Shown piece by piece: positions 432 to 60,177 of a DNA stretch of 64,000 bases. Positions within the stretch are counted from its first letter, which is position 1; every line of letters starts with the position of its first letter. Below the pieces are notes generated by a model that saw nothing but the letters and a program-made list of their open reading frames with translations, did not search any database and was not told the DNA's origin. The position numbers and the translations under genes are program-made. Source of the stretch: Candidatus Nanosyncoccus sp. (GTDB lineage: Bacteria > Patescibacteriota > Saccharimonadia > Saccharimonadales > Saccharimonadaceae); assembly GCA_045603565.1 (NCBI GenBank), contig JAZUML010000003.1, positions 13,818-77,817 of the forward strand, read 5' to 3'.

Positions 432-1331
432 ATGGAACCAAGCGCAGAACAGGCGCCAGCCCCACAAGGCGAAGCTAATATTCAAACCCCAATCTCGCCA
501 GAGCCAATAGAGCCGGTAAAATCAAAAAACACCAAAACCCTTACCTGGATTTTTGGCATTTTAGCAGTCATCGCTCTCGTCGCCACCGGAGTTTTTGCCT
601 ACCTCTATTTCACAAGTCAACCCCAACCAACGCCAACCAGTGATACGCCAACCACTATAATCGAACCCACCGACGATGTTCAGGCATCATCTATCCCTAC
701 CGCAGCGGAAGTTGCACAACTCTTAGAAGACAAATATGATTTTAGTGCAGAAGAAAGATATTTCTGTATTGGAGCACGAGACATAGTCTGTGGCATTAAT
801 AATTTTGATACTGATAAAAAATTACAATTTATTATCGGACATGCACCAGAGACCTTATTTACTAATGAAAGATATGTTGATGTGTCGTACATAAGAAACA
901 TAAAATACGACGATTTAAATAAATTATATAACGACTATTTCGGTTCACTAGAGAATATCAATAAAGAAGATCACGACTTTGAAAATAGTTATTTGATTGG
1001 TATGAAATATCTATCAGAGAGTGACAGTTTTGATATTCAATTTAAAGACGGGCTCGGTGGGACTACAACCGTAAGTGTATTTAATAAAGTTGTGGAAACT
1101 AATGAGAGTGAGAATGGTTTTGTGGCAACTATTATATCAGTGACCATCAATAATGTCGTCAGTTCTACTGAGGAACCATTTTCAGGAAATTCGGTTGATG
1201 GGCAAAAGCTGTATCAGATGGGGATTCCGTCTGAAGATGTAGCTGAAATTCAAGAAAGTCTTTCTGCTTATCACTTTAATTTTCTTGAAGAGAACGGTGA
1301 GCATAAGTTAATTTCAATCGAAAAACTCTAG
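432..1331 (+). CDS. Hypothetical membrane-anchored secreted protein
   Basis: AGGAG RBS; Pro/Glu-rich N-terminus, one TM helix (WIFGILAVIALVATGVFAYLYF), Pro/Thr linker, acidic extracellular domain. Confidence 0.75.
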   Translation: MEPSAEQAPAPQGEANIQTPISPEPIEPVKSKNTKTLTWIFGILAVIALVATGVFAYLYFTSQPQPTPTSDTPTTIIEPTDDVQASSIPTAAEVAQLLEDKYDFSAEERYFCIGARDIVCGINNFDTDKKLQFIIGHAPETLFTNERYVDVSYIRNIKYDDLNKLYNDYFGSLENINKEDHDFENSYLIGMKYLSESDSFDIQFKDGLGGTTTVSVFNKVVETNESENGFVATIISVTINNVVSSTEEPFSGNSVDGQKLYQMGIPSEDVAEIQESLSAYHFNFLEENGEHKLISIEKL

Positions 1332-2464
1332 TCTTCAATCGATATTCTCGGGTAAATATTAAGGGAGTATGGGTCGGTCGGCTCTACGCCGGACTCAATC
1401 TCGAAATAGCACGCTGCGGATACCATCGCCCCGTTATCACCCGAGAGCGAAGGAGCAGGGAAATACGCATCGGGCAAGGCTTTTCTTAGTTCTTCGTTTG
1501 CGCTCACTCCACCAGCGACGACAATAGACTTCACGTCTGGATACATTTCGCACGCTTTATCTAGTTTTTCAATCAAAATCTCAACTGCAGTCTTTTGGAA
1601 CGATGCCGCAAAATCACAGACTTGCTGTTCGCTTAGCAGTTCTTTCAATTTATGCGACGGGTACGATATTGGCACTCCCACCTCTTTTTGTACAGCCCGA
1701 AGAACCGCAGTTTTTAGTCCGGAAAACGAAAAATCCAGCCCTTCTACCTTTGGGTGTGGTAATTTGTATTTCGCATCGTTACCTCCTAGAGCTGCTTTTG
1801 CAATCGATGGTCCTCCCGGATATGGCAACCCCAAAATTTTCGCCACCTTATCAAAGCACTCCCCTACCGCATCATCTCTTGTCGTCCCAATAATCTCAAA
1901 CTGATTGTGTTCCCGCATATACAAAATCTGTGTATGTCCCCCACTTACTACAAGTGCAAGTAGTGGAAATGATGGATGGCAATCAGAAATAACACTTTCG
2001 AGACCGTCCGCGACTAACGAGGAGCGGATTGAGCGAGCTCGCCCCGTAACGACGGGCGAGAGCGAGCGTGTCGAGGAAGTGTTGTTTTGATTGCCACCAC
2101 CAAGCCAATTTGCATACACATGCGATTTCAAATGATGCACCGCATATAGTGGTTTATTGTGTAAGATCGCCAGAGTCCTCGCCGTCAGTGTTCCAATCAA
2201 GAGGGAACCAAGTAACCCCGGCGCATGCGTCACCGCAATCGCGTCAATATCATCCCAACCACAACCCGCATCAGCCAAAGCCTTATCAATTACCGGCATC
2301 ATCGCCTCGAGATGACTCCTCGCTGCTACTTCAGGTATCACTCCCCCATATTCTGCAAAAATATCAATTTGGGAAACCACGACATTAGACAAAATCTCCG
2401 CCCCATTATCGACCACGGCCGCCGCTGTTTCGTCACAACTTGTCTCTATCCCCATAATCTTCAT
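1328..2464 (-). CDS. tsaD: tRNA N6-adenosine threonylcarbamoyltransferase TsaD, with a ~40-aa in-frame palindromic insertion
   Basis: GIETSCDETAAAV, GGVIPEVAARSH, HHLKSH metal motif, VSGGHT, DDAVGECFDK, FSFSGLKTA, DNGAMV. Confidence 0.96.
   Translation of the reverse strand: MKIMGIETSCDETAAAVVDNGAEILSNVVVSQIDIFAEYGGVIPEVAARSHLEAMMPVIDKALADAGCGWDDIDAIAVTHAPGLLGSLLIGTLTARTLAILHNKPLYAVHHLKSHVYANWLGGGNQNNTSSTRSLSPVVTGRARSIRSSLVADGLESVISDCHPSFPLLALVVSGGHTQILYMREHNQFEIIGTTRDDAVGECFDKVAKILGLPYPGGPSIAKAALGGNDAKYKLPHPKVEGLDFSFSGLKTAVLRAVQKEVGVPISYPSHKLKELLSEQQVCDFAASFQKTAVEILIEKLDKACEMYPDVKSIVVAGGVSANEELRKALPDAYFPAPSLSGDNGAMVSAACYFEIESGVEPTDPYSLNIYPRISIED
1977..2096. repeat. Family A palindromic element, in frame within tsaD (120 bp)
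   Basis: Arms 1977-2001 and 2071-2096 are imperfect inverted repeats; core 2007-2058 matches 23050-23101 at 42/52 nt ungapped. Confidence 0.9.
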
Positions 2465-10481: not shown

Positions 10482-11042
10482 ATGTACGGACCAACAGATC
10501 TAAAGAAAAATACACTCATTACTTTAGACGGACAGCCGTATAAGGTGGTGGAATATTCTCAAAAAGTCATGGGCCGTGGCGGCTCGATTGTTAACGTCAA
10601 GGTCAAAAACTTAATCACCGGCGCACTTTTACCCAAAACATTCAAAGGGCAAGAAAAGATCGAACCCGCCGAGGTAACTACTCGCAAGGTTCAGTACCTT
10701 TACAAGGATGACGAAAAGTTTTATTTCATGAATCCAGAAAGTTTCGAACAATATGAACTTCCAGCCGATATGGTAGGCGAGTCCAAAGATTACATGAAAG
10801 ATGGAGACGAAATGGAAATCCAGTTCTATAATGGCACTCCAATTAATCTCGTACTACCAAAGAATCTTTGGCTCGAAGTAGTTTATACCGAGAATGCCGT
10901 AAAGGGCGATACTACGAGTTCTGTTATGAAAGACGCCAAACTTGAAACAGGCATCGTAATCAAAGTTCCTGCTTTTATCAAAGAAGGCGATATCGTATCA
11001 GTCGATACGGAGTCTGGTGCTTACCGTGAGCGTAAAAAATAG
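10482..11042 (+). CDS. efp: Elongation factor P (loop MGRGG)
   Basis: KVKNLITG, YLYKD, VKGDT, KVPAFIKEGDIVSVDTESGAYRER; start set at MYGPTDLKK. Confidence 0.94.
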   Translation: MYGPTDLKKNTLITLDGQPYKVVEYSQKVMGRGGSIVNVKVKNLITGALLPKTFKGQEKIEPAEVTTRKVQYLYKDDEKFYFMNPESFEQYELPADMVGESKDYMKDGDEMEIQFYNGTPINLVLPKNLWLEVVYTENAVKGDTTSSVMKDAKLETGIVIKVPAFIKEGDIVSVDTESGAYRERKK

Positions 11043-11679
11043 AGGGTATTACAAAATTGAAGGTGCAGCTCGCGCCTTCAATTTTGATTTCAAAAACAAA
11101 ATCGTATTAGACATCGGTTCATCTACTGGAGGTTTCACTCAATACGCCTTAGATCATGGCGCTAAAAAAGTCATCGCCATAGAAAAGGGAACCAAACAAA
11201 TGGCACCCTCACTCCGCCAAGACCCCCGTGTCGAACTTCACGAAAAAACCGACATCTTTGACGTAAAAACAACAGAACTGTCTTCTTCGGGACGCTCCTC
11301 GCGTCCATCTTCATGGGGCTCGTCGCTGAGTCCTCGTAGCGACTGCGGATTCCCCTCAGAAGACAATTCTGTTGTTTTTGATGTTATTGTAGCTGATGTT
11401 TCATTTACTAGTCTTACAAAAGTTTTAGCTCATACCAAGGCAAATTTAGCGAGCGAAGCCACTAAATTTCTCGTAATGTTAAAACCCCAGTTCGAGGCCA
11501 GGCCAGATCAACTCAACAAAGGCGTTATCAAAAACGAGTCAATTCGTCGCGACATTATCAAACAATTCGAACAATGGCTCAAAGATCACGATTTTGTCAT
11601 TATCAAAAAACGCGACAATCTCTTGAAAGGGAAGACCGGAAATCAGGAAAGATTTTATTATTTAACACTTGCAAAATAA
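11026..11679 (+). CDS. TlyA-family SAM methyltransferase lacking the S4 domain, with a ~35-aa palindromic insertion
   Basis: VLDIGSSTGGFT, DVSFTSL, MLKPQFEA, GKTGNQERF; start codon uncertain (GTG 11017 or 11026). Confidence 0.85.
   Translation: MSVKNRGYYKIEGAARAFNFDFKNKIVLDIGSSTGGFTQYALDHGAKKVIAIEKGTKQMAPSLRQDPRVELHEKTDIFDVKTTELSSSGRSSRPSSWGSSLSPRSDCGFPSEDNSVVFDVIVADVSFTSLTKVLAHTKANLASEATKFLVMLKPQFEARPDQLNKGVIKNESIRRDIIKQFEQWLKDHDFVIIKKRDNLLKGKTGNQERFYYLTLAK
11265..11379. repeat. Family A palindromic element, in frame within the tlyA-like gene
   Basis: 22-bp arms 11265-11286 and 11358-11379 (21/22 complementary); core CCATCTTCATGGGGCTCGTCGCTGAGTCC resembles the reverse complement of 23050-23101. 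Confidence 0.88.
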
Positions 11680-22062: not shown

Positions 22063-23001
22063 TTATTTTGTTTCCGAATGAAACTTCTCATGTATCTCTT
22101 TTAGATGCGCATCTGTCACGTGAGTATATATTTGTGTCGTAGAAATATCTGCATGCCCTAGCATCGATTGCACTGCACGAAGATCCGCACCATTCATCAA
22201 AAGATCAGTCGCAAAAGAATGTCGGAGTGTATGCGGAGAAACATGCTTGGTGATACCAGCCAATCTCGCATATTTTTCAACTATTCTTTCCACCGAACGC
22301 GCAGTAATTCGGCGATAATTTCCGGAAGTATCTACCGCCTGAGTGTTACGCGAATTATTCAAAAACAAAGCCGGCAGGGAATCACTTCGTGCGTCCAAAT
22401 AATCGCGTACGCGATCTGCTGCCGATTGGCTAATAAAAATCGGTCGATCCTTACTTCCTTTCCCCCTCACCATAAACTCACGTCGCTCTAGATTAATCGA
22501 ATCACGATTAAGTCCCACTAATTCTGAAACCCGCAACCCACCAGAGTACAATAGTTCGATAATCGCCCGATCTCTTAGTCCTGACTCGGTCGATAAATCT
22601 ATCTGTTCCAACATATCTTCCACTTCATCAAAATGCAAAAAAGATACCTGTTTTCGTATCACGTGCGGCAAATCCACGAGGGAAGGATCCAATGATTTAA
22701 TATCTCGTCTAGCTAAGTATTTCAAAAAACCGCGCAATGCAATCAGATGATAAGCTTGAGTAATGGTTTTTAAATCATCTTCGCCCTTCTCAGAACCATA
22801 ACGATTTAGCTTAATTCTATACTTTCTTAACAATTCTTTTGTAATATCAGACGGCTTCATCTCGTCTTTATTCAAAATTTCTAACGAAATCTCCACAAAT
22901 CTTTCCAAGTACAACCTGTAGTTTTCAATCGTCTTTTTACTTCTCCCCGCCTCTATCTCCAAATGCTCCAGAAAATCATTAATCAGATCATAAATATCCA
23001 T
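22063..23001 (-). CDS. XerC/XerD-family tyrosine recombinase
   Basis: RDRAIIELLYSGGLRVSEL, GKGSKDR, HTLRHSFATDLL, LGHADISTTQIY. Confidence 0.95.
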   Translation of the reverse strand: MDIYDLINDFLEHLEIEAGRSKKTIENYRLYLERFVEISLEILNKDEMKPSDITKELLRKYRIKLNRYGSEKGEDDLKTITQAYHLIALRGFLKYLARRDIKSLDPSLVDLPHVIRKQVSFLHFDEVEDMLEQIDLSTESGLRDRAIIELLYSGGLRVSELVGLNRDSINLERREFMVRGKGSKDRPIFISQSAADRVRDYLDARSDSLPALFLNNSRNTQAVDTSGNYRRITARSVERIVEKYARLAGITKHVSPHTLRHSFATDLLMNGADLRAVQSMLGHADISTTQIYTHVTDAHLKEIHEKFHSETK

Positions 23002-23017: not shown

Positions 23018-23140
23018 AAGAAAATTAGAATGTTACCTTCTCGGGGGCTTCCGCGACCAACGGGGAGCGGACTGAGCGACTGAGCCCCATAACGATGGGT
23101 GCGAAGTAGCATACCCCGAAAGGTATATTCTAATTTTCTT
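23018..23140. repeat. Family A palindromic element, intergenic between the divergent xer and ndk genes
   Basis: Arms 23018-23039 and 23120-23140; core homologous to the tsaD, tlyA and polA copies. Confidence 0.9.
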
Positions 23141-23170: not shown

Positions 23171-23686
23171 ATGGCAAAATCACAAGATTACATTCAACGC
23201 ACCTTAGTCGTACTAAAACCAGACACCGTTCAACGCGGTATCATCGGCGAAATTGTCCAACGTTTTGAGCGTGTTGGCCTTAAAATTGTTGGTATGAAGA
23301 TGGTTATGCCAGAAGAGAAGCTCTACCGTCAGCACTACGAAGATATCGGCCAAATGATTACCCGCCGCGGCGAAACCACTTTTCGCTACAATGTCGAATA
23401 TATGATGAGTGGCCCAGTTATCGCGATGGTCTTAGAGGGTGTCGAAGCTCAACCATTAGTCCGCAAAATTGTCGGCCCAACCGAGCCAAAATCCGCCGAA
23501 ATGGGCACCATCCGCGGCGATTATTCTCACATGAGCTTTGGTTATTCCGATGCTAAGGGCGTTGGCGTGCCAAATCTTGTCCACGCTTCTGGCTCCGTCG
23601 AAGAAGCCAAAAAAGAAATCGACCTCTGGTTTAATGCCAACGAACTCTACGACTACAGCGATTTACACGAAAAATACACAAGATAA
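23171..23686 (+). CDS. ndk: Nucleoside diphosphate kinase
   Basis: RTLVVLKPDTVQRG, SGPVIAMV, GTIRGDY, NLVHASGS; start after the AAGGAG RBS. Confidence 0.96.
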   Translation: MAKSQDYIQRTLVVLKPDTVQRGIIGEIVQRFERVGLKIVGMKMVMPEEKLYRQHYEDIGQMITRRGETTFRYNVEYMMSGPVIAMVLEGVEAQPLVRKIVGPTEPKSAEMGTIRGDYSHMSFGYSDAKGVGVPNLVHASGSVEEAKKEIDLWFNANELYDYSDLHEKYTR

Positions 23687-30966: not shown

Positions 30967-32604
30967 ATGAACGACGCGAAGGAGGAAATAAAATCCCGAC
31001 TCGCGGTGGAGGATGTCGTCGGGCAGTATATCGAATTAAAGCGTGCCGGCCGCAATCTTAAGGGCCGTTCGCCTTGGGGTGTCGACAAAACTCCAAGCTT
31101 TATGGTTTCTCCCGAAAAGGGCATCTGGCATGACTTTTCAGCAAACAAAGGCGGCGACATTTTTACTTTTGTGATGGAAGTAGAGGGAATTAGTTTCAAA
31201 GAAGCGATGGAAAAACTCGCAAATCAAGCCGGAGTTGACCTCAGTAAGTATCATGGTGGTGACGCTACAGTTTCCAAAAAGAAAGCTCGCGCGAAAGAGG
31301 CCTTAGCGCTAGCCACTAAATATTATCAAGCCTGTCTCGTACGCAACAAAAAAATCTGTGAGTACGTTTTTTACCAAAGAAATCTCAATCGCAAAACCGT
31401 CCAAGAATTCAAGATTGGCTATGCGCCAGAAAGCGGCAAAGCACTAGTCGATGTTCTCACCAAACATGGTTATGACGTCGCTGAGCTCGAGACCGCTGGT
31501 CTCCTTAATCGTTTCAAAAGTGATTTATTCCGCGGTCGCATGACAGTGCCATTTATTGATACTACTGGTAACGTAATTGGTTTTACCGCGCGTATTATTG
31601 GAAAAGGTGAACCCAAATATCTCAACACGCCCGAAACTTTATTGTTCAACAAATCAAAATTTATTTTTGGGCTATTTCAGGCCAAAGAATCTATTCGCCG
31701 CAGCGGCTTCGTGGTTATCGTGGAGGGAAACATGGACGTAATATCTTCGCATCAAGCAGGCGTCAAAGAAGCCGTTGCAACTTCTGGCACTGCCATGACC
31801 GAGCAACATCTCAAAGCTCTCTCCAAGCTTACTTCTGATATTCGCCTCGCCTATGACGGCGACGAAGCTGGGGTCAAAGCTACCGAACGCGCTATCATGA
31901 TGGCCGGTGATCTCGGTATCGATCTTACTGTTATATCAGATTATCATGGCGCCAAAGATCCAGACGAGCTTATTCAAAAGGACCCCAAACTTTGGCAAGA
32001 AGCCGTAGCAAAAAGCATTCCAGCCGTAGATTGGCTCCTTCAAAAATACGAAGAAAACCTAAACCTAAATACTGCGCCCGGCAAACGTAAATATTCTGAT
32101 ATTGCTCTCAAACTTCTAAGTTATATTACCGATGAAATCGAGCGAGCAAGCTACGAAGAAAAGATTGCCAACAAACTAGATGTCGAAGTTGAAATCTTAC
32201 GCGAAAAGGGCGAACGGCTGAACAAAAAATTAGCTCAAGCCCCCAAAAAATACCTAAAAAAACCAAAAACCGCCGCAAAAAACAGTCATCTCAAAAAGCT
32301 CGAAGATAGCCTACTTGCACTAAAACTATTTGGCGGCGTCACTAAAACCAAAATACCCCTCGAGCCTCCACAAGACGAAACTCGCCTTTCGGAATTAGAA
32401 TTAGTTTTCAGTCGCGAACACGAAAAAATCAAAAATCTTGACTTAGAAAAAGAAGCCTCCGAACTACTCGCACGCTACAATCGGGAATTAAACAAGCAAA
32501 AAATCAAAGAACTCAATCAAAAACTAGCTGAACTTAGCGAAGATGATACAGAATACGAAAAAATCCTTAAAAAGATCGTGGATATACAAAGCGCTGAAGG
32601 GTGA
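30967..32604 (+). CDS. dnaG: DNA primase
   Basis: Zn-finger-like KTPSF, DLFRGRMTVP, PKYLNTPET, IVEGNMDV, YDGDEAG, KDPDE Toprim motifs. Confidence 0.96.
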   Translation: MNDAKEEIKSRLAVEDVVGQYIELKRAGRNLKGRSPWGVDKTPSFMVSPEKGIWHDFSANKGGDIFTFVMEVEGISFKEAMEKLANQAGVDLSKYHGGDATVSKKKARAKEALALATKYYQACLVRNKKICEYVFYQRNLNRKTVQEFKIGYAPESGKALVDVLTKHGYDVAELETAGLLNRFKSDLFRGRMTVPFIDTTGNVIGFTARIIGKGEPKYLNTPETLLFNKSKFIFGLFQAKESIRRSGFVVIVEGNMDVISSHQAGVKEAVATSGTAMTEQHLKALSKLTSDIRLAYDGDEAGVKATERAIMMAGDLGIDLTVISDYHGAKDPDELIQKDPKLWQEAVAKSIPAVDWLLQKYEENLNLNTAPGKRKYSDIALKLLSYITDEIERASYEEKIANKLDVEVEILREKGERLNKKLAQAPKKYLKKPKTAAKNSHLKKLEDSLLALKLFGGVTKTKIPLEPPQDETRLSELELVFSREHEKIKNLDLEKEASELLARYNRELNKQKIKELNQKLAELSEDDTEYEKILKKIVDIQSAEG

Positions 32605-32646
32605 TGCATTTGCTTTTTTTCTATTTATGACATATAATAAACGCTA

Positions 32647-33624
32647 ATGAGCGCGAAAAAAGACGATCAAATTTTGACTGCGAAGGACCTAACTCTTGAA
32701 ATCGATGAACCAGAGACGCACGATTTAGAGAATGAAGAAGAGCTCTCCGATGAGGAGCTTGCTATTACTGCCGAAAATGTAGATTCTTTTGCAGACGATT
32801 CAGTTAGACTATATCTTCGCGAAATCGGTAAGATTCCTCTTTTGACTCCAGAGGAGGAGGCCGAGCTAGCCCAAAAAATCGTCAAAGGTGACAAAAAAGC
32901 CAAAGACAAAATGGTCGAATCAAACATGCGTCTTGTGGTTTCTATTGCAAAGCGTTATGGTGGCCGAGGTCTAGATTTTCTAGATTTAATTCAAGAAGGA
33001 AATACTGGTTTGCTGCGCGCCGTCGAAAAATTCGACCCCGACAAAGGCTTCAAGTTTTCTACTTATGCCACCTGGTGGGTGCGTCAGGCGATCACTCGCG
33101 CTATCGCCGATCAAGCCCGCACGATTCGTATTCCGGTTCACATGGTTGAGACTATCAACAAGGTTCTTCGTACTACTCGTAAACTCACCTCCGAATTAAA
33201 CCGTGAACCTACCAACGAAGAAATCGCCAAAGCCCTAGACATGGAGCCCGAAAAAGTCGACTACGTTATGCGTATCAAGCAAGATATTGCCTCGCTAGAT
33301 GCTTCCGTAGGACGTGATGGCGACGACGAAGATTCTGTATTAGGTGATTTTGTCGAAGACGAAGAGCGTGACTCTCCAGAAGATTCCGCTGCGAACCAAA
33401 TCTTAAAAGAGCAATTGTCCGAAATAATTGCCACTTTGACAGATAGGGAACAAAAGATTATCCGCCTACGTTTTGGCATCGGTGGCGGCCGCCCACACAC
33501 TCTAGAAGAGGTCGGCAACGAATTCGACGTCACGCGTGAGCGCATTCGTCAGATTGAGGCCAAAGCTCTCAGTAAGCTTCGCAAAAACAAAGAAACCCGC
33601 AAACTACACGAATATTTAAAATAG
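32647..33624 (+). CDS. rpoD: Primary sigma factor RpoD/SigA
   Basis: [70 protein letters not shown]. Confidence 0.97.
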
Positions 33625-33634
33625 GAGGCACCAA

Positions 33635-34006
33635 GTGAAGAAAATTATCGCATTATTAGCAATCATCACAATGAGCTTGTCTAGCATTAGCGCTCATGCA
33701 CTAAGCATGGTTCAAACAAGTCAATTTGGTGCAGTGGAAACAGCTATATTGAATGACTGCGGCAGCAAAGACGGCGGCGAAGGTGTAATTTGTATCATTA
33801 ATCTTGTTGTAAACATCTTGTCCGTCGGCGTTGGCATCTTGGGTGTCGTGGCTATTTCCGTAGTCGGCGTCCAATACCTTACCGCCGGAGACAGTGAAGA
33901 AAAAGTGCGCACTGCTAAGCGTCGATTATTCGAGATCGTGATTGGCCTTGCCGCCTACGCCGTAATCTATGCCTTATTACAATGGCTCTTACCAGGCTTC
34001 GGATGA
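33635..34006 (+). CDS. VirB2/TrbC-like (T4SS pilin family) protein
   Basis: GGAGG RBS + GTG; signal peptide; two hydrophobic helices around GVQYLTAGDSEEKVRTAK. Confidence 0.75.
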   Translation: MKKIIALLAIITMSLSSISAHALSMVQTSQFGAVETAILNDCGSKDGGEGVICIINLVVNILSVGVGILGVVAISVVGVQYLTAGDSEEKVRTAKRRLFEIVIGLAAYAVIYALLQWLLPGFG

Positions 34007-34983
34007 GACGCTTACTAATTATTTATAATCCTCGCTCGTCTCGTTTTTCTGATGTTAAAGACGAGGTCCTTAGTCGTCTAACGGAGCTAAAAGGCTACAT
34101 GGTTGGAAAATATGAAGTCGCTAACACCGATGTTGACGACAATGCTAAAAAGCTTGCCAAAATCCTCAAAAACGACGATCTAGTAGTTGCTGCAGGGGGT
34201 GACGCCACGGCCGTCATTGCTGCTAACGCAATCCTGCAGTCGGACAAAAACATCACTCTCGCCGTTCTCCCGTATGGTAACTTCAACGACCTCTCTCGTA
34301 CTCTCGGAACGGAAACTTTAGAAGATGTCGTTACATGGACGGGTGGCGTCGCTGGGGGGACCCCCGCCGCACGCAGCCGTGAGGCGAGTACGGCGGGGGA
34401 AACTGCGACGACAGGACTCGTCCAGAAACTATATCCTCTCGAAATATACATTGATGATAAGTTTTTCCGTTACGCTACTTGTTATGTCACCATCGGTATG
34501 ACCGCCGAGGCCGTTGAATTATTCGATAAACCTAAAGTCAGGAAAAAGCTCAAAACTTCCTCGGGTCGCTCCTTCGGCTCATATCTAAGTCTTGCGGGTT
34601 GGTATTTCAAGAACCGTCATCGCAAAACATTTTTGCCCGAGTTCAAGCTCAATGGCGAATTGCAGCACCGCAAAACGTCCGACTACGCTGCTGTCAACGG
34701 TAGCTCAATGGCTCGTGTTATGAAAGGTGGCGATGACTATCAGAATCCCACAGTCTTTCGTAGCGAAACCGACCGCTTGACTAGTTTTTGGCGTTTAGTA
34801 AAACTACTAACGAAAAGCATACTCTCTCGAATTCCAGGCTCAGAAACCAAAGGCGACATTTTGGAATTCATAAGACCATCCACCGTCGAATTACAAGCTG
34901 AAGGCGAGTATACGACTTTTGAGAACATTAATAAAATTGAAATCAAGAAAGGCAAAAAATGTCTGAAGGTAGTCAAGAAATAG
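34003..34983 (+). CDS. Diacylglycerol/lipid kinase family protein with a ~30-aa palindromic insertion
   Basis: IIYNPRSS, AAGGDATA, LPYGNFNDLSRTLG, EGE C-terminal motif; ATGA overlap with the upstream gene. Confidence 0.85.
   Translation: MRRLLIIYNPRSSRFSDVKDEVLSRLTELKGYMVGKYEVANTDVDDNAKKLAKILKNDDLVVAAGGDATAVIAANAILQSDKNITLAVLPYGNFNDLSRTLGTETLEDVVTWTGGVAGGTPAARSREASTAGETATTGLVQKLYPLEIYIDDKFFRYATCYVTIGMTAEAVELFDKPKVRKKLKTSSGRSFGSYLSLAGWYFKNRHRKTFLPEFKLNGELQHRKTSDYAAVNGSSMARVMKGGDDYQNPTVFRSETDRLTSFWRLVKLLTKSILSRIPGSETKGDILEFIRPSTVELQAEGEYTTFENINKIEIKKGKKCLKVVKK
34333..34427. repeat. Family B palindromic element, in frame within the lipid kinase gene
   Basis: ACATGGACGGGTGGCG...CAGGACTCGTCCAGAA; ends match 45887-45974. 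Confidence 0.88.
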
Positions 34984-35768
34984 AGCAAATCGTTAAATAT
35001 ATGAAGTCGCATTGGCCGTCCAATGTTAAACCAGAATGGCAAGTCGGTCTCGCCGAATATCCTGGCATCCTCAAAAAGGCATTAGCAGATTTAACCATGG
35101 CTGCGACTAAAAATTACCATCTCATCCGCATAGCAGGCGTCTCTGGTTCTGGTAAAACCACTCAGATTTTACCCGCCGTTGAAGCGTATTGCGAAAAAAA
35201 CAATTTCGAGCCAATTCTAATGGCTGCACGTCGTTTTGTAGAGTATCATCCGCACTTTGAAGAAATCAAAGAATACTATGGTGAAGAGAACTTACGCAAA
35301 AACACTGACGAATTCTGTACTATTATGCTATTCTTAACGCTTTCTGCATTGATGAAAGATGGTTACGACATTGTTTTAGACGTCACCTTATTAGACCCAG
35401 AAATGGAAGCAATTTTACTCAAAATGGTCAAAACAGAAAACTACAAGTTCTTAATTCTCATGATTGCCGTTTCACCTACCGTCACTGAAAAATACCTTAG
35501 CGGTCGTGCTTGGCGCCATTCTAAAGCCACTGAACAAGAATTTATCCGAGCCACATCCGAGGCCCTAGCCTTTTATGCCGAAAACACACCTGATACACAC
35601 ATCATTATCTGGAGCGTCTATGACAAACCGCCAGTTTACGACGGTCCAATCAAAGATTGTATCGATATATTTAGCGACTATTCAAATAGGGAAGCACTAC
35701 CAAAATCTGATGACGACGAGCGCCGCGACGCTAAAATCGATTATCTTACCAAATTAGAGTTGATTTAG
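34959..35768 (+). CDS. Zeta-toxin-family P-loop kinase
   Basis: IAGVSGSGKTT Walker A, FVEYHPHFEEI, DIVLDVTL. Confidence 0.65.
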   Translation: MSEGSQEIEQIVKYMKSHWPSNVKPEWQVGLAEYPGILKKALADLTMAATKNYHLIRIAGVSGSGKTTQILPAVEAYCEKNNFEPILMAARRFVEYHPHFEEIKEYYGEENLRKNTDEFCTIMLFLTLSALMKDGYDIVLDVTLLDPEMEAILLKMVKTENYKFLILMIAVSPTVTEKYLSGRAWRHSKATEQEFIRATSEALAFYAENTPDTHIIIWSVYDKPPVYDGPIKDCIDIFSDYSNREALPKSDDDERRDAKIDYLTKLELI

Positions 35769-36566
35769 ATTAATTTCCGGAAAATGCGCCCTAATGTGTT
35801 CGGCGTAGCCATTATCGATATTTTTCCAAGCCTCTTTCATTCTATCAATATTATCTAACTTATCAAATTGTGCCAGAAAAGCCGTTTCAAAATCGTCTGG
35901 TACCGGCCTCGACAGCATTCTCGCTACATCCATCTCTGGATTTCCAGTTCCGGCAAAACAAAAGTCAATCACACCAATCACTTTGTTATTTTTGTCTAAC
36001 AGGATATTCCCAAGATTCAAATCACCATGTACTAGTTTTTTGAGTTCTGTTTCTTTGATAAAACTATGATCCGCATCGATGTGTTTGTCGTAATGCTCAT
36101 AATCTAATTCGTGTAAAAACTCGCTCAAGGGGAATTGAACTTCTTTTGGTGCACCACTAAGATCAATGCCAGACAACTCTTTGATGAACTTTGCCGTATC
36201 ATAAGCAACCCCCAGTAGCGCCGTATGCGACAAGTGATAAATTCTATCACCCAAAGTGTATCCTTCAATTTTTTGATGCAAAGAAAACGGACGTCCGTCT
36301 TTGTCATAGCAAAGCTTCATTTGTGGCGTATAATAACTAGTTTTTCCGTCTACAAAACTACAAACTGCAGCATCTTTTACAATCATTTTTGACCAAAAAG
36401 GATTTCGCGGAAATCTAAAAAAATACGCGCCATCATCTGTCGTCACTTCAATTACGATATTTGTCCACCCAGTCAAAATATGCTTAGTTTTCTCAATTTT
36501 CTTCTCTGGCAAAGTTTCTGCAATAATCAAATCAAGATTGTCAGAGGTAGTGAAATAATTCGCCAT
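35754..36566 (-). CDS. Aminoglycoside phosphotransferase/choline kinase-family protein
   Basis: GWTNIV, FRFPR, LVHGDLNLGNILL, GVIDF. Confidence 0.85.
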   Translation of the reverse strand: MANYFTTSDNLDLIIAETLPEKKIEKTKHILTGWTNIVIEVTTDDGAYFFRFPRNPFWSKMIVKDAAVCSFVDGKTSYYTPQMKLCYDKDGRPFSLHQKIEGYTLGDRIYHLSHTALLGVAYDTAKFIKELSGIDLSGAPKEVQFPLSEFLHELDYEHYDKHIDADHSFIKETELKKLVHGDLNLGNILLDKNNKVIGVIDFCFAGTGNPEMDVARMLSRPVPDDFETAFLAQFDKLDNIDRMKEAWKNIDNGYAEHIRAHFPEINLNQL

Positions 36567-36595
36567 AACCTATTATACCATGCTATAATAAAGCT

Positions 36596-37162
36596 ATGGA
36601 GAATATCAAGATACTCGCAATTGTTGGTATGTCTGGCTCCGGCAAATCTGTCGCAGTTGATTATCTCACCGAAAAAGGTTATCCCAAAGTTTATTTCGGC
36701 GGCATGATTTACAAAGAAATGGAAAAGCGCGGTATCGAACGCACCGAAGATGGCGAATCTGAGAAGAAATTCCGTGAAGAAATACGCGAAAAAGAAGGCA
36801 AAGACTGGGTAGTAAAGCAAGCCATCGCCGAGACTAAGGATTTAATTAGCGCTGGCCAAAAACACATCATTCTTGACGGTGTTTATTCCTGGACCGAATA
36901 CAAAACTTTAAAACACGAATTCCCCAAAGCACTAACATTTATCGCAATCGTAGTCGACAAAAAACTCCGCTACGATAGAGTAGCCGACCGTCCGGGTCGC
37001 GCTTTTGATGCTGCTGCTATCCGTGAGCGCGATCGTAGCGAAATTGAAAACCTCGAAAAAGGCGGTCCTATCGCCGCCGCTGATTATTATATTTTAAACA
37101 ACGGCACAGTCCCAGAATTACACGAAAGATTAAATCAAATATTAAAGGAGATAGAGTTTTGA
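36596..37162 (+). CDS. Dephospho-CoA kinase-like P-loop protein (archaeal-type/AAA family)
   Basis: VGMSGSGKS, ILDGVYSWTEY, IRERDRSEI, ADYYILNNGT. Confidence 0.75.
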   Translation: MENIKILAIVGMSGSGKSVAVDYLTEKGYPKVYFGGMIYKEMEKRGIERTEDGESEKKFREEIREKEGKDWVVKQAIAETKDLISAGQKHIILDGVYSWTEYKTLKHEFPKALTFIAIVVDKKLRYDRVADRPGRAFDAAAIRERDRSEIENLEKGGPIAAADYYILNNGTVPELHERLNQILKEIEF

Positions 37163-37596
37163 CAAGCATAGATAACATATCAAATGTAGCATACAAAAAA
37201 GGCAACCTCATGCGATATACTCTCTGGGCTCTTGCTGCAGTTTGTATCGGCACGCTAATTTATACTTTTATCAACACTATGAGTGGCGATGTCTCTGCCT
37301 CCGTTCCAGAAGGATACCGTTTTTCCGTTACTGATAATTATACCGAGGGAAGTAATATTCGGACAATTTATTATGTTTACGATGATAGGATTATGGTCGA
37401 AGACGAAAGCATAGACAACAACAACGTCAATCGCGCGATTTTGGTGTACGACAACATCAATACAACGCCGCTAGCGTATGATGATGAAACCATCGAACTG
37501 TGTGAATTGGGTGATTGTAGCGAAAAACCCAGAATTCTCGCCACCATTAAATCGCTAATCTCGCGCAAAATTGGCCGCGAATACATAGGTTTTTAG
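37159..37596 (+). CDS. Hypothetical membrane-anchored protein
   Basis: TM helix near the N-terminus; fills the gap before polA; start uncertain. Confidence 0.6.
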   Translation: MTSIDNISNVAYKKGNLMRYTLWALAAVCIGTLIYTFINTMSGDVSASVPEGYRFSVTDNYTEGSNIRTIYYVYDDRIMVEDESIDNNNVNRAILVYDNINTTPLAYDDETIELCELGDCSEKPRILATIKSLISRKIGREYIGF

Positions 37597-40050
37597 ATGA
37601 AAAAGCTGGTCTTAATTGACGGAAAATCGGTTTTTTACCGAGGTTATTATGCAATGGGCGCACTCAGCCTTCCAGACGGTACGCCGACCGGCGGAGTATA
37701 TGGTTTTGCCGCTATCGCCATGGAAATCGTCAAAAAAATCAATCCCACCAAAATAGTTGTGGCTTGGGACTCCAAAACTTCTACCTCCAAACGCCGCGCA
37801 ATTTATCCGGAGTATAAAGCCGGTCGCGTTAAGCCAGGCGAAGATTTTTATGCCCAAATCCCACTTTTAAAGGAACTAATTCAAGATTTAGGTTGGAGTT
37901 TTGTTGAAATTGATGATTATGAAGCCGATGATATTATTGGCACGCTTTCAAAACAAGCCGACGAGACCTTAGATCAAAACGGCAAATGTGAGTACGAAAC
38001 ATTTATTATTTCTTCCGATCTCGATATGCTCCAAATAGTAGATAGCAACACCCATATGTGGCGCATCCTCAAGGGGTTTACTAACATTGAACAAATAAAT
38101 GTTCCAGAAATCGAAGCCAAATACGGCATCAAAAAGTCTCAATTCTTAGACCTCAAAGCCCTGAAGGGCGATTCGTCCGACAACATCCCCGGCGTACCCG
38201 GTATTGGCGAAAAAACCGCCGCCAAGCTTTTGAATGAATACAAAGATTTAGACGGTATATATCATAATATAGATAAAATTACCGGTTCAACCAAAGCCAA
38301 ACTCGAAGCAGGCGTCGCCTCCGCCCTCATGTCCAAAACTTTAGCTCAAATCATGTTTGACGCTCCTGTCTACCTAAACGACATCCCCGACTTCATATTC
38401 GACCGCGACCGCATCATTGCTGGCTTGAAAAAACTCCAATTCAACTCTCTCATCCGCAAAACTAGTCAAGAGGGCAAAGAAGCTGCAATTTCGAGGGGAT
38501 CCGGAGCCTGGCAAGGCGAGGACGAGCGCGTCGCCCCCGTGGCGACCGCCCCCCGGGACGCGGACGACCTCTGGTCGACGGGTGGCGACGACGCGCCCCG
38601 AGAAAGTGCTGATTCTTTGCCTGTCGATACTATTATTGATTGGAACATCAAATCTCTGATGCATCACGACGGAAAAATCGCTTCCGAAATCCTGCACGGC
38701 AAAAACTATTGGGATCTCGGCCAAGCAGAATTCTTACTCAATCCTCTCGAACGTGGACAATCAGATTTATATGACCCTATGGATTTTAAAACTGCTTATC
38801 AGGTTCAGCACAGGGAACTAAACAAGCTCCCTAGACTATATAATATATACAAAGAATTTGATTTGCCCCTAATTCCGATTCTTTACAAAATGGAAAAGCA
38901 GGGCATGTTAATCGACCGAGAATATTTCAAAAACCTCCAAGTCGAATACACCAAAGAAGTCGCCGCGCTTGAGCAGGATATTCAAAAACTCGCCGATACA
39001 GAATTCAACGTCAATTCTCCGATTCAGCTTTCCGAAGTGCTATTTTCCAAGCTCGAACTCCCAACCAAGGGCATCAAAAAGACCACTCGTGGCTATTCTA
39101 CTGGAGCAAAAGAGTTAGACAAACTCAAAGACCTCCATCCTATTATTGCCAAAATTATCGAATACCGCGAAGCGGCTAAGCTTCTTAACACTTATATCAT
39201 CCCAATTCCAGGCCTTGCGGGCGAAGACGGTCGTATCCACACCACTTTTACCCAAAATGTTACCGCTACTGGGCGCTTAAGTTCCAAAGATCCTAACCTC
39301 CAAAACATTCCAGTTCGTACCGACGAAGGCAAACGCATTCGTACTGGCTTCATTGCACCAGAGGGCAAAGTTTTGGTCTCGGCTGACTATTCTCAATTTG
39401 AGCTCCGTCTTGCCGCGATTCTGTCTGGTGATCAAGCCCTAATCGATGATTTCAATCACGACGTGGATATCCACACCAAGACCGCTTCAGAAGCCTTCAA
39501 AGTCCCGATGGACAAAGTCACCAAAGCCCAAAGACGCGCCGCCAAAGTCATTAATTTTGGTATTCTTTATGGCATGAGTGTCAAAGGTCTTTCTGACGCC
39601 GCCAAAATGCCAATTTATGAAGCAAAACGATTCATTGATAATTATTTTGAACTTCGCGCCCCAATCAAACAAAAACTGGAAAGCATCCTAAAACAGGCTA
39701 GGGAAGAAGGCTTTGTCGAAACTTTCTATGGTCGCCGTCGCCCTACACCAGACGTCAAATCCAGCAATTTCTTGATTCGCCAAGCCGCTGAGCGCGCCGC
39801 TCAAAATATGCCAATTCAGGGCACTGAAGCCGACTTAATGAAACGCGCTATGATCAAGGTCGATCAAAAGCTTCCCGAGGGCGCTAATCTCGTTATGCAA
39901 GTGCACGATTCTTTAATTGTTGAATGCGATAAATCTCAAGCCAAAGCAGTCGCTAAGATTTTGAAGACCGAAATGGAGTCTGTTGCCCCCGAGCTAGATA
40001 TCAAACTCGCCGTCGAAATCTCCACCGGTCAAAACTGGGGCGAACTCTAA
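37597..40050 (+). CDS. polA: DNA polymerase I with a ~50-aa palindromic insertion in the interdomain linker
   Basis: LIDGKSVFYRGYY, YEADDIIGT, GDSSDNIPGVPGIGEKT, TGRLSSKDPNLQNIP, DYSQFELR, NFGILYG, QVHDSL. Confidence 0.97.
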   Translation: MKKLVLIDGKSVFYRGYYAMGALSLPDGTPTGGVYGFAAIAMEIVKKINPTKIVVAWDSKTSTSKRRAIYPEYKAGRVKPGEDFYAQIPLLKELIQDLGWSFVEIDDYEADDIIGTLSKQADETLDQNGKCEYETFIISSDLDMLQIVDSNTHMWRILKGFTNIEQINVPEIEAKYGIKKSQFLDLKALKGDSSDNIPGVPGIGEKTAAKLLNEYKDLDGIYHNIDKITGSTKAKLEAGVASALMSKTLAQIMFDAPVYLNDIPDFIFDRDRIIAGLKKLQFNSLIRKTSQEGKEAAISRGSGAWQGEDERVAPVATAPRDADDLWSTGGDDAPRESADSLPVDTIIDWNIKSLMHHDGKIASEILHGKNYWDLGQAEFLLNPLERGQSDLYDPMDFKTAYQVQHRELNKLPRLYNIYKEFDLPLIPILYKMEKQGMLIDREYFKNLQVEYTKEVAALEQDIQKLADTEFNVNSPIQLSEVLFSKLELPTKGIKKTTRGYSTGAKELDKLKDLHPIIAKIIEYREAAKLLNTYIIPIPGLAGEDGRIHTTFTQNVTATGRLSSKDPNLQNIPVRTDEGKRIRTGFIAPEGKVLVSADYSQFELRLAAILSGDQALIDDFNHDVDIHTKTASEAFKVPMDKVTKAQRRAAKVINFGILYGMSVKGLSDAAKMPIYEAKRFIDNYFELRAPIKQKLESILKQAREEGFVETFYGRRRPTPDVKSSNFLIRQAAERAAQNMPIQGTEADLMKRAMIKVDQKLPEGANLVMQVHDSLIVECDKSQAKAVAKILKTEMESVAPELDIKLAVEISTGQNWGEL
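38473..38621. repeat. Family A palindromic element with an expanded central hairpin, in frame within polA
   Basis: 26-bp arms 38473-38498 and 38596-38621; GC-rich core TCGAGGGGATCCG...CGAGGACGAGCG resembles the tlyA copy. Confidence 0.82.
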
Positions 40051-40129
40051 ACTTATCAGATTTCTTTACAAGTTGAAGCCCTGGCGTTATTATTAGTATG
40101 TGTGTTGTGCACATACTGAAAGGGAAAAT

Positions 40130-41104
40130 ATGGATAAAAGTATAGAGATCTACAAAATTCATGAAGGCGAAATTGTTTTTCGCGTCGATGCAGACAAAGA
40201 GACCATTTGGACTACACAGGAACAACTTTCAAATCTTTTTGGTGTAGATCGTACCGTGATTGGTCGTCATTTGCGCAATATTTTTCGCGACGGAGAATTA
40301 GACGAAAATTCAGTATGTGCAAAAATTGCACATACTGCCACAGACGGCAAAACTTATCAGGTCAAAATGTACAATCTCGACGCCATTATCTCTGTTGGTT
40401 ATCGTGTCAACTCCAAAAAGGCCACCGATTTTCGTATTTGGGCTACCAAAGTTCTCCACCATTATGTTATTGACGGCGTTTCGGTTAACGAGCGTCGTTT
40501 AAAAGAACTCGATGCCAAAAAACTCCACGAAATCGAAGGCGCCCTCGGTATTGTCAAGCGCCTTGTTGCCTCTTCCGATCTTTCCGCTGATGAAGCTGGC
40601 GGCGTGCTAGAAGTTATCACTAAGTACGGCCCGAGTTTTAAGGCCCTTAAAGAATACGACGAAGGCCACATCTCTTTTGCAAAAGGGAAGAAGGCCACCA
40701 AAATCATTTCCAAAGACGACGGAATTAACATTATTAAAGAACTCAAAAAATCCGTCAAAGGCGACGACTTATTTGGCAAGCCGCGTGGCGAAGCCTTTGA
40801 ATCGTCACTCAGTGCCATCACTCAGACTTTCGATGGTAAGGATGTTTACCCCTCCATTTCCGAAAAAGCTGCCAACCTCCTCTATCTTATCATCAAAGAT
40901 CACCCCTTTTATGATGGCAACAAACGCATTGGCGCTCTGCTTTTTGTAGTCTTTCTCACTATCAACGACTATCACCTCACCAAAAATGGCGAAACCAAAA
41001 TTTCCGACCGCGCTCTCACCGCCCTCGCCCTCTTAATTGCCGAATCAAATCCCAAAGAAAAAGGGCTACTAATAGCCCTCATCTGTAAACTTTTGGAAAA
41101 TTAA
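40130..41104 (+). CDS. RhuM-family DNA-binding domain fused to a Fic/Doc domain
   Basis: YNLDAIISVGYRVNSKKATDFRIWAT (RhuM); HPFYDGNKRIG (Fic motif); start set at MDKSIE. Confidence 0.88.
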   Translation: MDKSIEIYKIHEGEIVFRVDADKETIWTTQEQLSNLFGVDRTVIGRHLRNIFRDGELDENSVCAKIAHTATDGKTYQVKMYNLDAIISVGYRVNSKKATDFRIWATKVLHHYVIDGVSVNERRLKELDAKKLHEIEGALGIVKRLVASSDLSADEAGGVLEVITKYGPSFKALKEYDEGHISFAKGKKATKIISKDDGINIIKELKKSVKGDDLFGKPRGEAFESSLSAITQTFDGKDVYPSISEKAANLLYLIIKDHPFYDGNKRIGALLFVVFLTINDYHLTKNGETKISDRALTALALLIAESNPKEKGLLIALICKLLEN

Positions 41105-41538
41105 CGCACGTAAGCGATATTATGCTCCATCGCCTGAGTCTCGAGCGCCACCAATCTTTCAGCATCATCAATAGATGAATTTACACAGTGTTTCACTCGA
41201 GCCTTCTCCTCGGCCTTCTTAGCATCATTCCAGCGATCCAAAGTACCTACCAAATAGCCAGTAATTCGGCGCAACCTCTCGAATTTACCTTCGTCAAAAT
41301 AATCAGCATATTGATCGAAATATTCTCTCGCGGCGTCCTCACCCACCTTATCATTAATTAATTTCATTCCGGCCTCTACCAGGCAGGAAACATGCATCGT
41401 TTCATATTGGTCAAATTCAGCCAAAGCTTCCTTTGCTTCTTTTTCTGTTACCTTTGCGTACCTTCCGAGCGACTTCAAGAATCTTTTCATGTCAAAATTC
41501 GCCACCTCATTTTGATTCCGATATAATATTTTCTTCAT
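41101..41538 (-). CDS. Miniature NrdD-related protein: ATP-cone-like domain + glycyl-radical C-terminal peptide
   Basis: ERLRRITGYLVGTLDRWNDAKKAEEKARVKH resembles the NrdD C-terminus (RVCGYL...RVKH); only 145 aa. Confidence 0.75.
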   Translation of the reverse strand: MKKILYRNQNEVANFDMKRFLKSLGRYAKVTEKEAKEALAEFDQYETMHVSCLVEAGMKLINDKVGEDAAREYFDQYADYFDEGKFERLRRITGYLVGTLDRWNDAKKAEEKARVKHCVNSSIDDAERLVALETQAMEHNIAYVR

Positions 41539-41625
41539 GACTTTCCTTTCTCGGCAATTGGTTGATTATAGTATAGTATTTTGGCCGATTTTTAATTTTA
41601 TAAGCATTACCTGAAATTATTGTAA

Positions 41626-41674
41626 TCCCTATATATAGCGTTTGTCAAGACTTTTTTGACACTAAATATGGTGT
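41626..41674. promoter_or_regulatory. Tandem NrdR-box-like operators
   Basis: TCCCTATATATAGCGT (41626-41641) and ACACTAAATATGGTGT (41659-41674) fit acaCwAtATaTwGtgt, 33 bp apart, upstream of the NrdD-like gene. Confidence 0.7.
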
Positions 41675-41724
41675 TTTTCCACAATTTCGCATTTTAAGAG
41701 GAAGCCATATGATAAAATAAAAAC

Positions 41725-43520: not shown

Positions 43521-43675
43521 TTTCTTCCTATATAGTTAAAAATTAATGAATTTTCACTATTATAACTCTTTTATCTCAAAAAGTAAAGAGTATTTATCTA
43601 TAATCACTCTGGTATTTTCTCTTGATTTTTTTAAAAGCTTATGTTAACATTAACGTATAACACGTAAGGAAGCTC

Positions 43676-45436: not shown

Positions 45437-45477
45437 CCCTTGCTTTTCTCTAAAAAGTACGTTATAATAACAATGCT

Positions 45478-45554
45478 GGAATCGTAGCTCAGTTGGTTAG
45501 AGCGCTGCCCTGTCACGGCAGAGGTCGCGAGTTCGAGTCTCGTCGGTTCCGCCA
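45478..45554 (+). tRNA. tRNA-Asp(GTC)
   Basis: GGAATCG/CGGTTCC acceptor, CTGCC-CT GTC AC-GGCAG, TTCGAGT, CCA. Confidence 0.96.
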
Positions 45555-45877: not shown

Positions 45878-45886
45878 AATATATCT

Positions 45887-60163: not shown

Positions 60164-60177
60164 TCACCTCCTAATTG

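Follow-up and report, generated by a model that had tools for sequence, protein, structure and literature searches.

What are GC-rich palindromes doing inside the coding sequences of conserved enzymes, and do they behave as mobile DNA, as RNA or as parts of proteins? This question is raised by a stretch of 64,000 nucleotides (nt) from Candidatus Nanosyncoccus sp. (assembly GCA_045603565.1, contig JAZUML010000003.1, positions 13,818 to 77,817), referred to in its full length as the window. Five related elements, termed family A, are found there within tsaD, an FtsJ/TlyA-like methyltransferase gene and polA as well as between genes. The answer that we consider probable is that they are small, non-autonomous palindromic mobile DNA of gut Saccharibacteria, similar in kind to the Rickettsia palindromic elements (RPEs), and that their intragenic copies would be carried by the host enzymes as translated passenger loops. 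An earlier inspection of the letters of the window (the sequence-only reading) had suggested a system of this sort, and its suggestion withstood all of the refuting conditions that it had named. The present analysis adds that the elements possess site-specific AT-rich arms and an exchangeable core of ~80 nt, that cores flip in place and can hold a nested mini-module, and that the same loops are reused by several element families.

Family A palindromes in the window and in related genomes

All five family A elements proposed by the sequence-only reading were recovered by a covariance model (CM), including two that were not used for its training. The elements and their closest associated features are:

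1977-2096, minus strand: family A element in tsaD; outer arms ~1977-1998 and 2077-2096, GC-rich core ~1997-2078
1328-2464, minus strand: tsaD, host of the element at 1977-2096
11265-11379, plus strand: family A element in the FtsJ/TlyA-like methyltransferase gene (11017-11679); arms 11265-11285 and 11358-11379, core ~11283-11361
23018-23140, minus strand: intergenic family A element with divergent neighbors, a XerC/D-like recombinase gene (22063-23001, minus strand) and ndk (23171-23686); core ~23038-23123
38473-38621, minus strand: family A element (subfamily A2) in polA (37597-40050), in the linker between the 5'-3' exonuclease and polymerase domains
38545-38577, minus strand: mini-module of 33 nt with two hairpins, lying within the apical loop of the polA element (CCCGT^CGCCACGGG)
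61904-62002, plus strand: short family A relative with the core TTCGGACACGCTCGAGGGCGCTCGCCCAGGCTTATGGTCCTCA, filling the spacer that separates the genes of a GT8 glycosyltransferase and an acyltransferase

The short copy is real, but its span was originally given as 61914-61992 and is better described as 61904-62002. Similarly, the spans of the tlyA (115 nt) and polA (149 nt) copies hold as hairpin spans and not as exact insert sizes.

The window elements are long imperfect inverted repeats, in which AT-rich outer arms of 20-35 nt (80-89% complementary) enclose a GC-rich centre. Arm lengths and complementarities were, for instance, 27 nt and 89% in the tlyA copy, and 35 nt and 80% at 61904-62002. 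Either strand of each element folds as a long stem closing a three-way junction from which two inner hairpins emerge, and the stability of the fold far exceeds that of dinucleotide shuffles (z -3.7 to -9.0, both strands). For the tsaD element, -50 and -63 kcal/mol were obtained for the two strands (z -5.4 and -9.0), and z was -7.8 and -6.6 for the copy at 23018-23140. The ungapped identity of 42/52 between the tsaD core and this intergenic core was reproduced on rechecking and compares with a mean of 14.7 and a maximum of 26 in shuffles. The compensatory change in the central hairpin (CCCGT-AACG-ACGGG versus CCCAT-AACG-ATGGG) was likewise confirmed, at 2043 and 23086.

A custom inverted-repeat finder and a blastn library were too insensitive to collect further copies, and a CM was used instead. 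It was built from 16 aligned copies, three from the window (tsaD, tlyA, and 23018-23140) and 13 from tsaD inserts of relatives; RNAalifold found a common structure in this alignment with compensatory changes in 16 of 20 pairs. With filters off, the CM detected exactly five copies in the window. The three trained copies scored 59-87 bits (tsaD, 86.5; 23018-23140, 72.5; tlyA, 59), and the next match had an E-value of 0.05, on a scale that is rough for this model. The polA copy, outside the training set, reached 28 bits with filters off and 55 bits with default filters; the short relative, also untrained, was matched at 61923-61983 with 24.4 bits. A weak match of 15 bits (E 0.05) at 56206-56243, within the open reading frame (ORF) 55293-57425 and reading CTTTCGGGTGACTGGCGTCACGAGGAAAA, is either a decayed remnant or chance.

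Judging by homologs of TsaD, PolA and the TlyA-like protein, the window belongs to Candidatus Nanosyncoccus-like Saccharibacteria (TM7 group G3), and the metagenome-assembled genomes (MAGs) that supplied them stem from sheep, goat, yak, buffalo, and deer gut. MAG SGB_7183 (loci L001, L081, and L106; L-numbers denote loci fetched from relatives) shares 88-97% DNA identity with the window and thus belongs to the same or a sister species. This identity depends on the segment, ranging from 88% to 97% when window positions 1-22000 and 32400-49900 are compared with L001, L106, and L081, a patchiness that suggests frequent recombination between co-resident strains.

Further copies of family A had been expected in this genome and in related Saccharibacteria. 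Four rounds of CM searches in relatives' loci yielded 68, 36, 112, and 21 further copies, and hundreds are now known, almost all of them from Saccharibacteria. In ~3.3 Mb of related genomes, 207 unique copies fall into ~51 host-site clusters, at densities that are biased by the choice of loci around hot spots or by pattern. A pattern scan of 185,579 species genomes matched mostly Saccharibacteria. Some 20 matches in GC-rich Actinomycetota, Myxococcota, and similar taxa gave no CM match and are therefore attributed to chance, and one 'Nomurabacteria' MAG scored 36.8 CM bits. In the phage collection IMG/VR, four pattern matches included just one weak CM match (22.7 bits) and gave nothing convincing for carriage by phages; a metagenome scan, whose contigs lacked habitat labels, added little. 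At the coordinates of the elements, Rfam returned no match even at E<=5, only tRNAs of the window reaching the gathering score, and the searched literature yielded no paper linking Saccharibacteria or Patescibacteria with palindromic elements or with MITEs (transposable elements of the miniature inverted-repeat type). The elements are thus best read as a previously undescribed family or superfamily of gut Saccharibacteria (Nanosyncoccus and relatives), in agreement with the suggestion of an RPE-analogous, possibly undescribed system in a Patescibacteria lineage.

The core as the unit that spreads or is exchanged

Many non-orthologous copies contain cores of ~80 nt that are 99-100% identical, and the identity is bounded by the same bases throughout, 5'-(T)TCTCGG...CCTCGA(A)-3'. 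The arms that flank identical cores (15-25 bp) are completely different from copy to copy, and each arm pair is self-complementary, though imperfectly. Such identical cores in unrelated stems were found at three loci of a single genome (UBA1235: L224 at 232, L224 at 1417, and L226 at 7063) and also at seven loci across seven species. The proteins of species that share 99-100% identical cores are ~75% identical. At orthologous sites of different species, cores were only ~65% identical, below the value of the coding flanks, and stems ~53%. Identical cores in unrelated stems, together with divergent cores at orthologous sites, show that spread or exchange takes place in units of the core, and that sites are repeatedly reused. 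The idea that the whole hairpin is the general mobile unit and that stems diverge later was rejected on the grounds of identical cores in unrelated, imperfect stems. Strong purifying selection as the cause of core identity across species was also rejected, given the ~65% identity at orthologous sites. Overall, each copy is a T- or Y-shaped hairpin of 100-150 nt, in which a GC-rich core of ~80 nt with two internal hairpins (5'-TTCTCGG...CCTCGAA-3') sits atop an AT-rich, site-specific stem of 15-30 bp.

Cores also invert in place. In the TlyA-like gene, L106 10249-10363 is the reverse complement of window 11265-11379 (95.7%), while arms and flanks are shared and the flanks align forward; the flip changes the encoded peptide from SSGRSSRPSSWGSSLSPRSDCGFPS to YEGNPQSLRGLSDEPHEDGREERPK. 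The same inversion was found in L107 and L123. Among orthologous pairs, 89 were flipped and 395 had the same orientation, with flips in at least eight site clusters. Recombination or template switching between the arms would explain both these flips and the concerted evolution of the arms, and the occurrence of both orientations therefore needs no independent insertions.

The 33-nt mini-module consists of two mini-hairpins (TTGCCTTCGGCAA-TTCGCGTCCCAAGGGGCGAG, with a CGACC...GGTCG variant). In eight elements of different subfamilies (the polA copy of the window, L024, L032, L077, L096, L113, L133, and L177) it interrupts the first inner hairpin at exactly the same point of the apical loop, CCCGT^CGYYACGGG. 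Once, in L097, it occupies the loop of the second hairpin at CGGT^CGTAAC.

Decay has left copies that retain both core ends but are internally deleted (L137, L061), half elements (L039, L132), and core-less stems (L038, L125). The polA element is conserved in L081, and the copy at 23018-23140 has orthologs in the same ndk/xer spacer in L260 and L261. Turnover is seen in tsaD, where L001, with a 5' flank ~95% identical to that of the window, carries an element of another family (family D, described below) with different arms at the same codon as the family A element of the window. The 3' flank identity is only 88%, so that replacement of the allele by recombination is as likely here as fresh transposition. 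An insertion of a different kind separates the same strains downstream of tRNA-Asp (45478-45554). L081 13189-13297, compared with window ~45616, contains 109 nt that the window lacks within ~95% identical sequence; at the center of this insertion is a perfect AT-rich palindrome, and its junctions show TCG microhomology.

These observations have to be weighed against an explanation that involves no transposition at all. Palindromes could arise and be homogenized by host replication and repair (template switching and gene conversion), and the passage of cores from one species to another could be due to natural transformation and recombination. This explanation fits the way in which the arms evolve in concert, and also the patchy strain identity of 88-97%, which indicates frequent recombination. 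Furthermore, the stems of several copies reach into the host gene, where conserved codons supply the outermost paired bases, namely CCTAGCTT of PSFP (L001), AVV (L234), VK (L005), and KT (tlyA of the window). Template switching is, moreover, an accepted route to coding palindromes (PMC6649704). Conversion requires flanking homology, however, whereas identity ends at the same bases (TCTCGG...CCTCGA) in unrelated stems and no mosaic tracts are seen. New sites in unrelated genes and the site-specific nesting of the mini-module call for an insertion step, and empty alleles hold no palindrome that could be converted. We therefore regard exchange without transposition as an unlikely account of the family, although it is the strongest of the competing ones.

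Somewhat less likely still is a domesticated function at the DNA level, for example as binding sites of recombinases (Xer-type), as uptake or recombination signals, or as landmarks of replication or segregation, in which case conservation across species would reflect function. Cores of 99-100% identity across species with ~75% identical proteins, maintained pairing, and the position of one copy directly upstream of the XerC/D-like gene in three species could be understood in this way. Against this stand orthologous sites that hold different subfamilies or nothing, decay by internal deletion (L137, L061, L038, L039), and a highly variable presence; such turnover, decay, and variability are typical of selfish DNA. 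The XerC/D-like tyrosine recombinase gene itself (domains Phage_integrase and SAM_1) starts 17 nt from the copy at 23018-23140, and in L168 and L171 xer has a different upstream neighbor and no family A copy. A functional link between the two was set aside as a lead only: the adjacency amounts to one orthologous intergenic copy present in three species and absent in two.

In-frame residence in host genes

Of the first 72 copies typed, 66 (~92%) lie inside long ORFs, and every one of these is in frame and free of stops, as had been described for the intragenic copies of the window. Relative to the host gene, 30 have the same and 36 the opposite orientation, in line with the earlier remark that both occur; in the window, the polA element is oriented opposite to the tsaD and tlyA copies. 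The host genes encode TsaD, the FtsJ/TlyA-like methyltransferase, PolA, a P-type ATPase, ArgRS, IleRS, a DAG-kinase-like protein, and a prepilin peptidase. All 80 TsaD ORFs and all 80 TlyA ORFs were open and in frame. The elements are read in several frames and in both orientations. Frame use is non-random, with one open frame unused among the 30 same-orientation copies, which represent only ~16 sites and are not independent of one another. The tsaD insert is read in frame as GNQNNTSS...ESVISDCH and adds the peptide NQNNTSSTRSLSPVVTGRARSIRSSLVADGLESVISDCH directly after HHLKSH, as originally noted. Junction peptides predicted for the intragenic copies would span, for example, NWLGGGNQNNTSSTR or VISDCHPSFPLLALVVSGGHTQ. 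It had been argued that four intragenic insertions would all preserve the frame by chance in only one of 81 cases. This constitutes a survivorship filter and says nothing about the mechanism of insertion. The universal in-frame, stop-free state does favor read-through translation over splicing, as the sequence-only reading had concluded, and the inserts are best read as passenger loops that are presumably translated.

Alleles without an insert, anticipated among orthologs, are common. In an alignment of TsaD (n=81), four insertion hot spots were found, and the window site, right after HHLKSHVYANWL, is filled in 37 and empty in 44 sequences (an empty example is NWLTGESPIFPLLA of N. alces). Across orthologs, this site holds at least five unrelated peptide and DNA families. 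The further TsaD hot spots (L001-L080) are alignment columns 132-156, 277-324, and 431-493, and the length of the gene varies between species from 335 to 449 codons. Solved TsaD structures have no counterpart of query residues 122-162, a pure insertion that falls between chain residues 121 and 124 of 8iey. The TlyA-like gene likewise has many empty alleles, TDIFDF(x3-5)PDVIVADVSF. In orthologs, the PolA linker is likewise a hot spot (L101 and L104 have short alleles), and the P-type ATPase site displays the same filled/empty pattern and is reused by several families. Empty alleles at the TlyA-like and ATPase sites are free of palindromes, and inserts differ from empty alleles by multiples of three. 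Logan contigs from four low-depth DNA runs indicate that related strains carry either the element or the L001-type allele.

The reuse of hot spots involves hairpins of further families, two of which are present in the window:

34319-34426, no strand assigned: hairpin element of another family (family B of the sequence-only reading), in frame in a DAGK_cat gene (33982-34983)
47363-47462, no strand assigned: hairpin element of a further, fourth family (D), intergenic between an M24 peptidase gene and ftsA; arms of 33 nt, 82% complementary, fold z ~-8

The first is very GC-rich (0.82), and its peptide and DNA family also occupies the P-type ATPase hot spot of L020, L026, L031, and L055. Conversely, L086 has a family A copy at the DAGK site that holds this element in the window. 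Family D constitutes the tsaD insert of L001, L015, L070, and L075 and the TlyA insert of L115 (N. alces), L131, and L135, and the core of the short family A relative at 61904-62002 recurs as the tsaD insert of L007, L009, and L018. A larger hairpin family (>200 nt; ...PETYIPDG...ADFPG...YDVE(D/G)E...) was observed at the same hot spots, namely the TlyA site in L129, L139, and L141, the ATPase site in L034 and L071, and the PolA linker in L082. Two other features of the window are a GC-rich, terminator-like hairpin between convergent ORFs (60106-60173, AAAGCCCCCGG...CCGAGGGCTT) without a family A match, and a very large ORF of 1964 aa downstream of ftsA (48834-54728).

The inserts make saccharibacterial proteins such as TsaD, PolA, aminoacyl-tRNA synthetases, and P-type ATPases differ in length by 30-70 residues, and this variation affects annotation, orthology calls, phylogenomic alignments, and structure prediction.

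The constraint on the elements acts on the nucleic acid. In orthologous pairs, substitutions at codon positions 1/2/3 numbered 167/73/591 in the flanking coding DNA and 60/74/79 in the cores. Among 112 copies, 94.7% of the structure cells were paired, compared with 70.9% in shuffles and at most 58% with slid partners, and double changes numbered 518 versus 163 in shuffles. The pairs are almost exclusively of the Watson-Crick type (e.g., CG 51, GC 51, and GU 1 at one pair), G-U being no commoner than A-C. Thus, pairing is kept by Watson-Crick covariation while the encoded peptide drifts freely. Strand-symmetric pairing and residence in both orientations argue for a palindrome at the DNA level and not for a strand-specific RNA.

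The same data bear on the possibility that the hairpins are functional structured RNAs within mRNAs (intron-like, processed by RNase III, ribozymes, or regulatory stems), which would act or be removed at the RNA level, leaving the host protein without the inserted peptide. In favor of this are a predicted structure of high stability on both strands and strong covariation in all helices, and the intergenic elements at 61904-62002 and 47363-47462 fill spacers of co-directional genes, where they may serve as terminators or stabilizers. An excised RNA, however, would need neither to keep the frame nor to avoid stops, yet all 66 intragenic copies and all TsaD and TlyA ORFs do so. A single site can hold either orientation, with flips from strain to strain, the nearly pure Watson-Crick pairing and the strand symmetry are those expected for DNA, and Rfam offers no counterpart at E<=5. 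We consider a role as RNA very improbable. Ordinary lineage-specific protein loops (expansion segments) under selection at the protein level, with incidental palindromes, would suit the location in surface loops and linkers of conserved enzymes and the apparently invariable in-frame translation, but this model is excluded by the same nucleotide element in unrelated proteins and in intergenic DNA, its use in several frames and both orientations, substitutions that are flat across codon positions, and common empty alleles.

Candidate mobility mechanism and comparison with known systems

If the elements are mobile palindromic DNA, as we think probable, the acting form would be the DNA itself, probably folded into a single-stranded or cruciform hairpin. 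Hairpin apices would be the points of entry for new cores and for the 33-nt mini-module. Intrastrand template switching or arm-to-arm conversion, copying the host flank, would lengthen the stems and keep them paired. Inversion would result from recombination between the arms, and insertions would survive only where read-through translation yields a tolerated surface loop. A hairpin-recognizing enzyme of the single-strand type (HUH/Y1-like or tyrosine-recombinase-like), rather than a DDE transposase, is suggested by the two sub-terminal hairpins and by the absence of direct target duplications. More tentatively, and as a reading that we consider less likely than not, a new transposition chemistry at DNA hairpin apices can be envisaged. 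The core and, independently, the mini-module would integrate or swap at an existing hairpin loop, and snap-back copying of host flank would create and lengthen the stem. The products would be nested, flipping, T-shaped palindromes with an inverted rather than a direct target duplication, made by a hairpin-specific enzyme. Sharp-ended exchangeable cores, flip-flop, and loop-targeted nesting make this a tractable system for the study of hairpin-directed DNA mobility and palindrome maintenance, and ruminant metagenomes hold a large natural set of filled, empty, and flipped alleles for comparison.

Several points weigh against mobile DNA with translated inserts. One arm type (GCGAGAATACCCGTCGTT) is common to ~6 non-orthologous sites, indicating that the whole hairpin sometimes moves and that a core-only model is incomplete. 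In these shared-arm copies, the palindrome extends 3-5 site-specific base pairs past the shared arm. Snap-back copying as the in situ source of the entire outer stem is made less plausible by this arm type and was kept for the outermost few base pairs only, where growth by template switching from the host flank is inferred. No clean filled/empty pair between near-identical genomes was caught for family A, so that exact junctions and the origin of new stems are inferred. Identical cores could result partly from gene conversion rather than transposition. A cognate transposase, of the HUH/RAYT or IS200/IS605 type that the sequence-only reading had proposed to look for, did not emerge: tblastn with IS200, IS608, and RAYT (REP-associated tyrosine transposase; REP, repetitive extragenic palindrome) queries gave no match at E<=0.01 in the ~3.3 Mb of incomplete genomes, which makes this a weak negative. 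Likewise, a search of these partial genomes for an autonomous partner, by way of unpaired left and right ends 0.3-5 kb apart, returned no credible composite and was otherwise uninformative. No RNA runs containing the locus were found in which retention of the inserts in mRNA or protein might be followed, and all sequences derive from MAGs.

Among known systems, the inverted terminal repeats of parvoviruses (adeno-associated virus) are GC-rich, T-shaped hairpins of ~125-145 nt with a stem and two small internal palindromes, and occur in flip and flop orientations. The likeness is one of shape only (the T and the flip/flop). The saccharibacterial elements are chromosomal and internal, with no Rep gene or replicon, and their flips are explained more simply by recombination between arms.

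Coding palindromes are also present in mitochondrial genes of Nematomorpha, where template switching was proposed for the maintenance of the arms (PMC6649704). Long inverted repeats inside translated genes with arms kept complementary are common to both systems. In Nematomorpha, however, both arms encode conserved host residues and a shared mobile core is lacking, whereas arms and core of the saccharibacterial elements are insertions without amino-acid constraint and the core belongs to a family.

Bacterial MITEs (e.g., Correia, ERIC, RUP, Nezha, and the Coxiella QMITEs; reviewed in PMC10969869 and PMC2229807) resemble the elements in being small, non-autonomous, and multi-copy, in their terminal inverted repeats (TIRs) and hairpin folds, and in that some copies make in-frame fusions. 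Classical MITEs have TIRs conserved throughout the family, direct target-site duplications, and a recognizable parent insertion sequence (IS). In family A, by contrast, the only TIR shared family-wide is the imperfect 7-nt core end (TTCTCGG/CCTCGAA), the long arms vary from site to site even around identical cores, apart from the one type that recurs at ~6 sites, and the ~3.3 Mb of partial genomes yielded no parent IS. Direct target-site duplications were absent at the window copies, and the flanks of identical cores are inverted repeats.

IS200/IS605-derived, palindrome-associated elements, together with REPs and bacterial interspersed mosaic elements with their RAYTs, are transposed as single strands by HUH enzymes (PMC3733652). 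They appear to share with the elements the two sub-terminal imperfect hairpins and the absence of target duplication. They also insert beside a short specific sequence in single-stranded DNA, with structure outweighing sequence (PMC3733652). The mini-module always follows C(C/G)GT, and core and mini-module each comprise two hairpins; for the core, no fixed motif was found. REPs, however, are extragenic, 20-40 nt long, and headed by GTAG or CGTC, as opposed to the ~92% intragenic copies of 100-150 nt described here, and the search of the ~3.3 Mb produced no Y1 or RAYT gene. A match of the family to an already described MITE or REP, which would have made it a known system, is thus contradicted by the lack of direct target duplication on the one hand and by location and size on the other.

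The closest parallel is provided by the RPEs (Ogata et al. 2000, Science 290:347). As summarized in two later papers, these are palindromic repeats of ~100-150 bp in several families, located in frame in many housekeeping genes and in intergenic DNA (PMC10969869, PMC6649704). Family A, too, is a multi-copy palindromic repeat of ~100-150 bp with a stable hairpin, inserted in frame and without stops into many unrelated genes at sites that are empty in orthologs. Both reside in the reduced genome of a host-dependent bacterium, place their peptide at tolerated surface sites, lack a known transposase, and decay over time. RPEs were described as encoding a conserved peptide, whereas both orientations and several frames are used in Saccharibacteria. 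A GC-rich core in an AT-rich genome, sharp ends, unrelated site-specific stems, in-place flips, a nested mini-module, and reuse of the same loop by at least five families further distinguish the saccharibacterial elements. They are set apart from the Rickettsiales elements by taxon and anatomy, a sequence relationship not being expected, and were accordingly filed as RPE-like, not as RPEs. If our reading is correct, Rickettsia would be the sole earlier well-documented bacterial example of selfish palindromic DNA residing routinely inside essential protein-coding genes, and the saccharibacterial elements the second. This second case comes from a different phylum (Candidate Phyla Radiation) with likewise tiny genomes and a host-dependent lifestyle, and the parallel between Rickettsia and Saccharibacteria suggests a general link between genome reduction and the tolerance of such elements.

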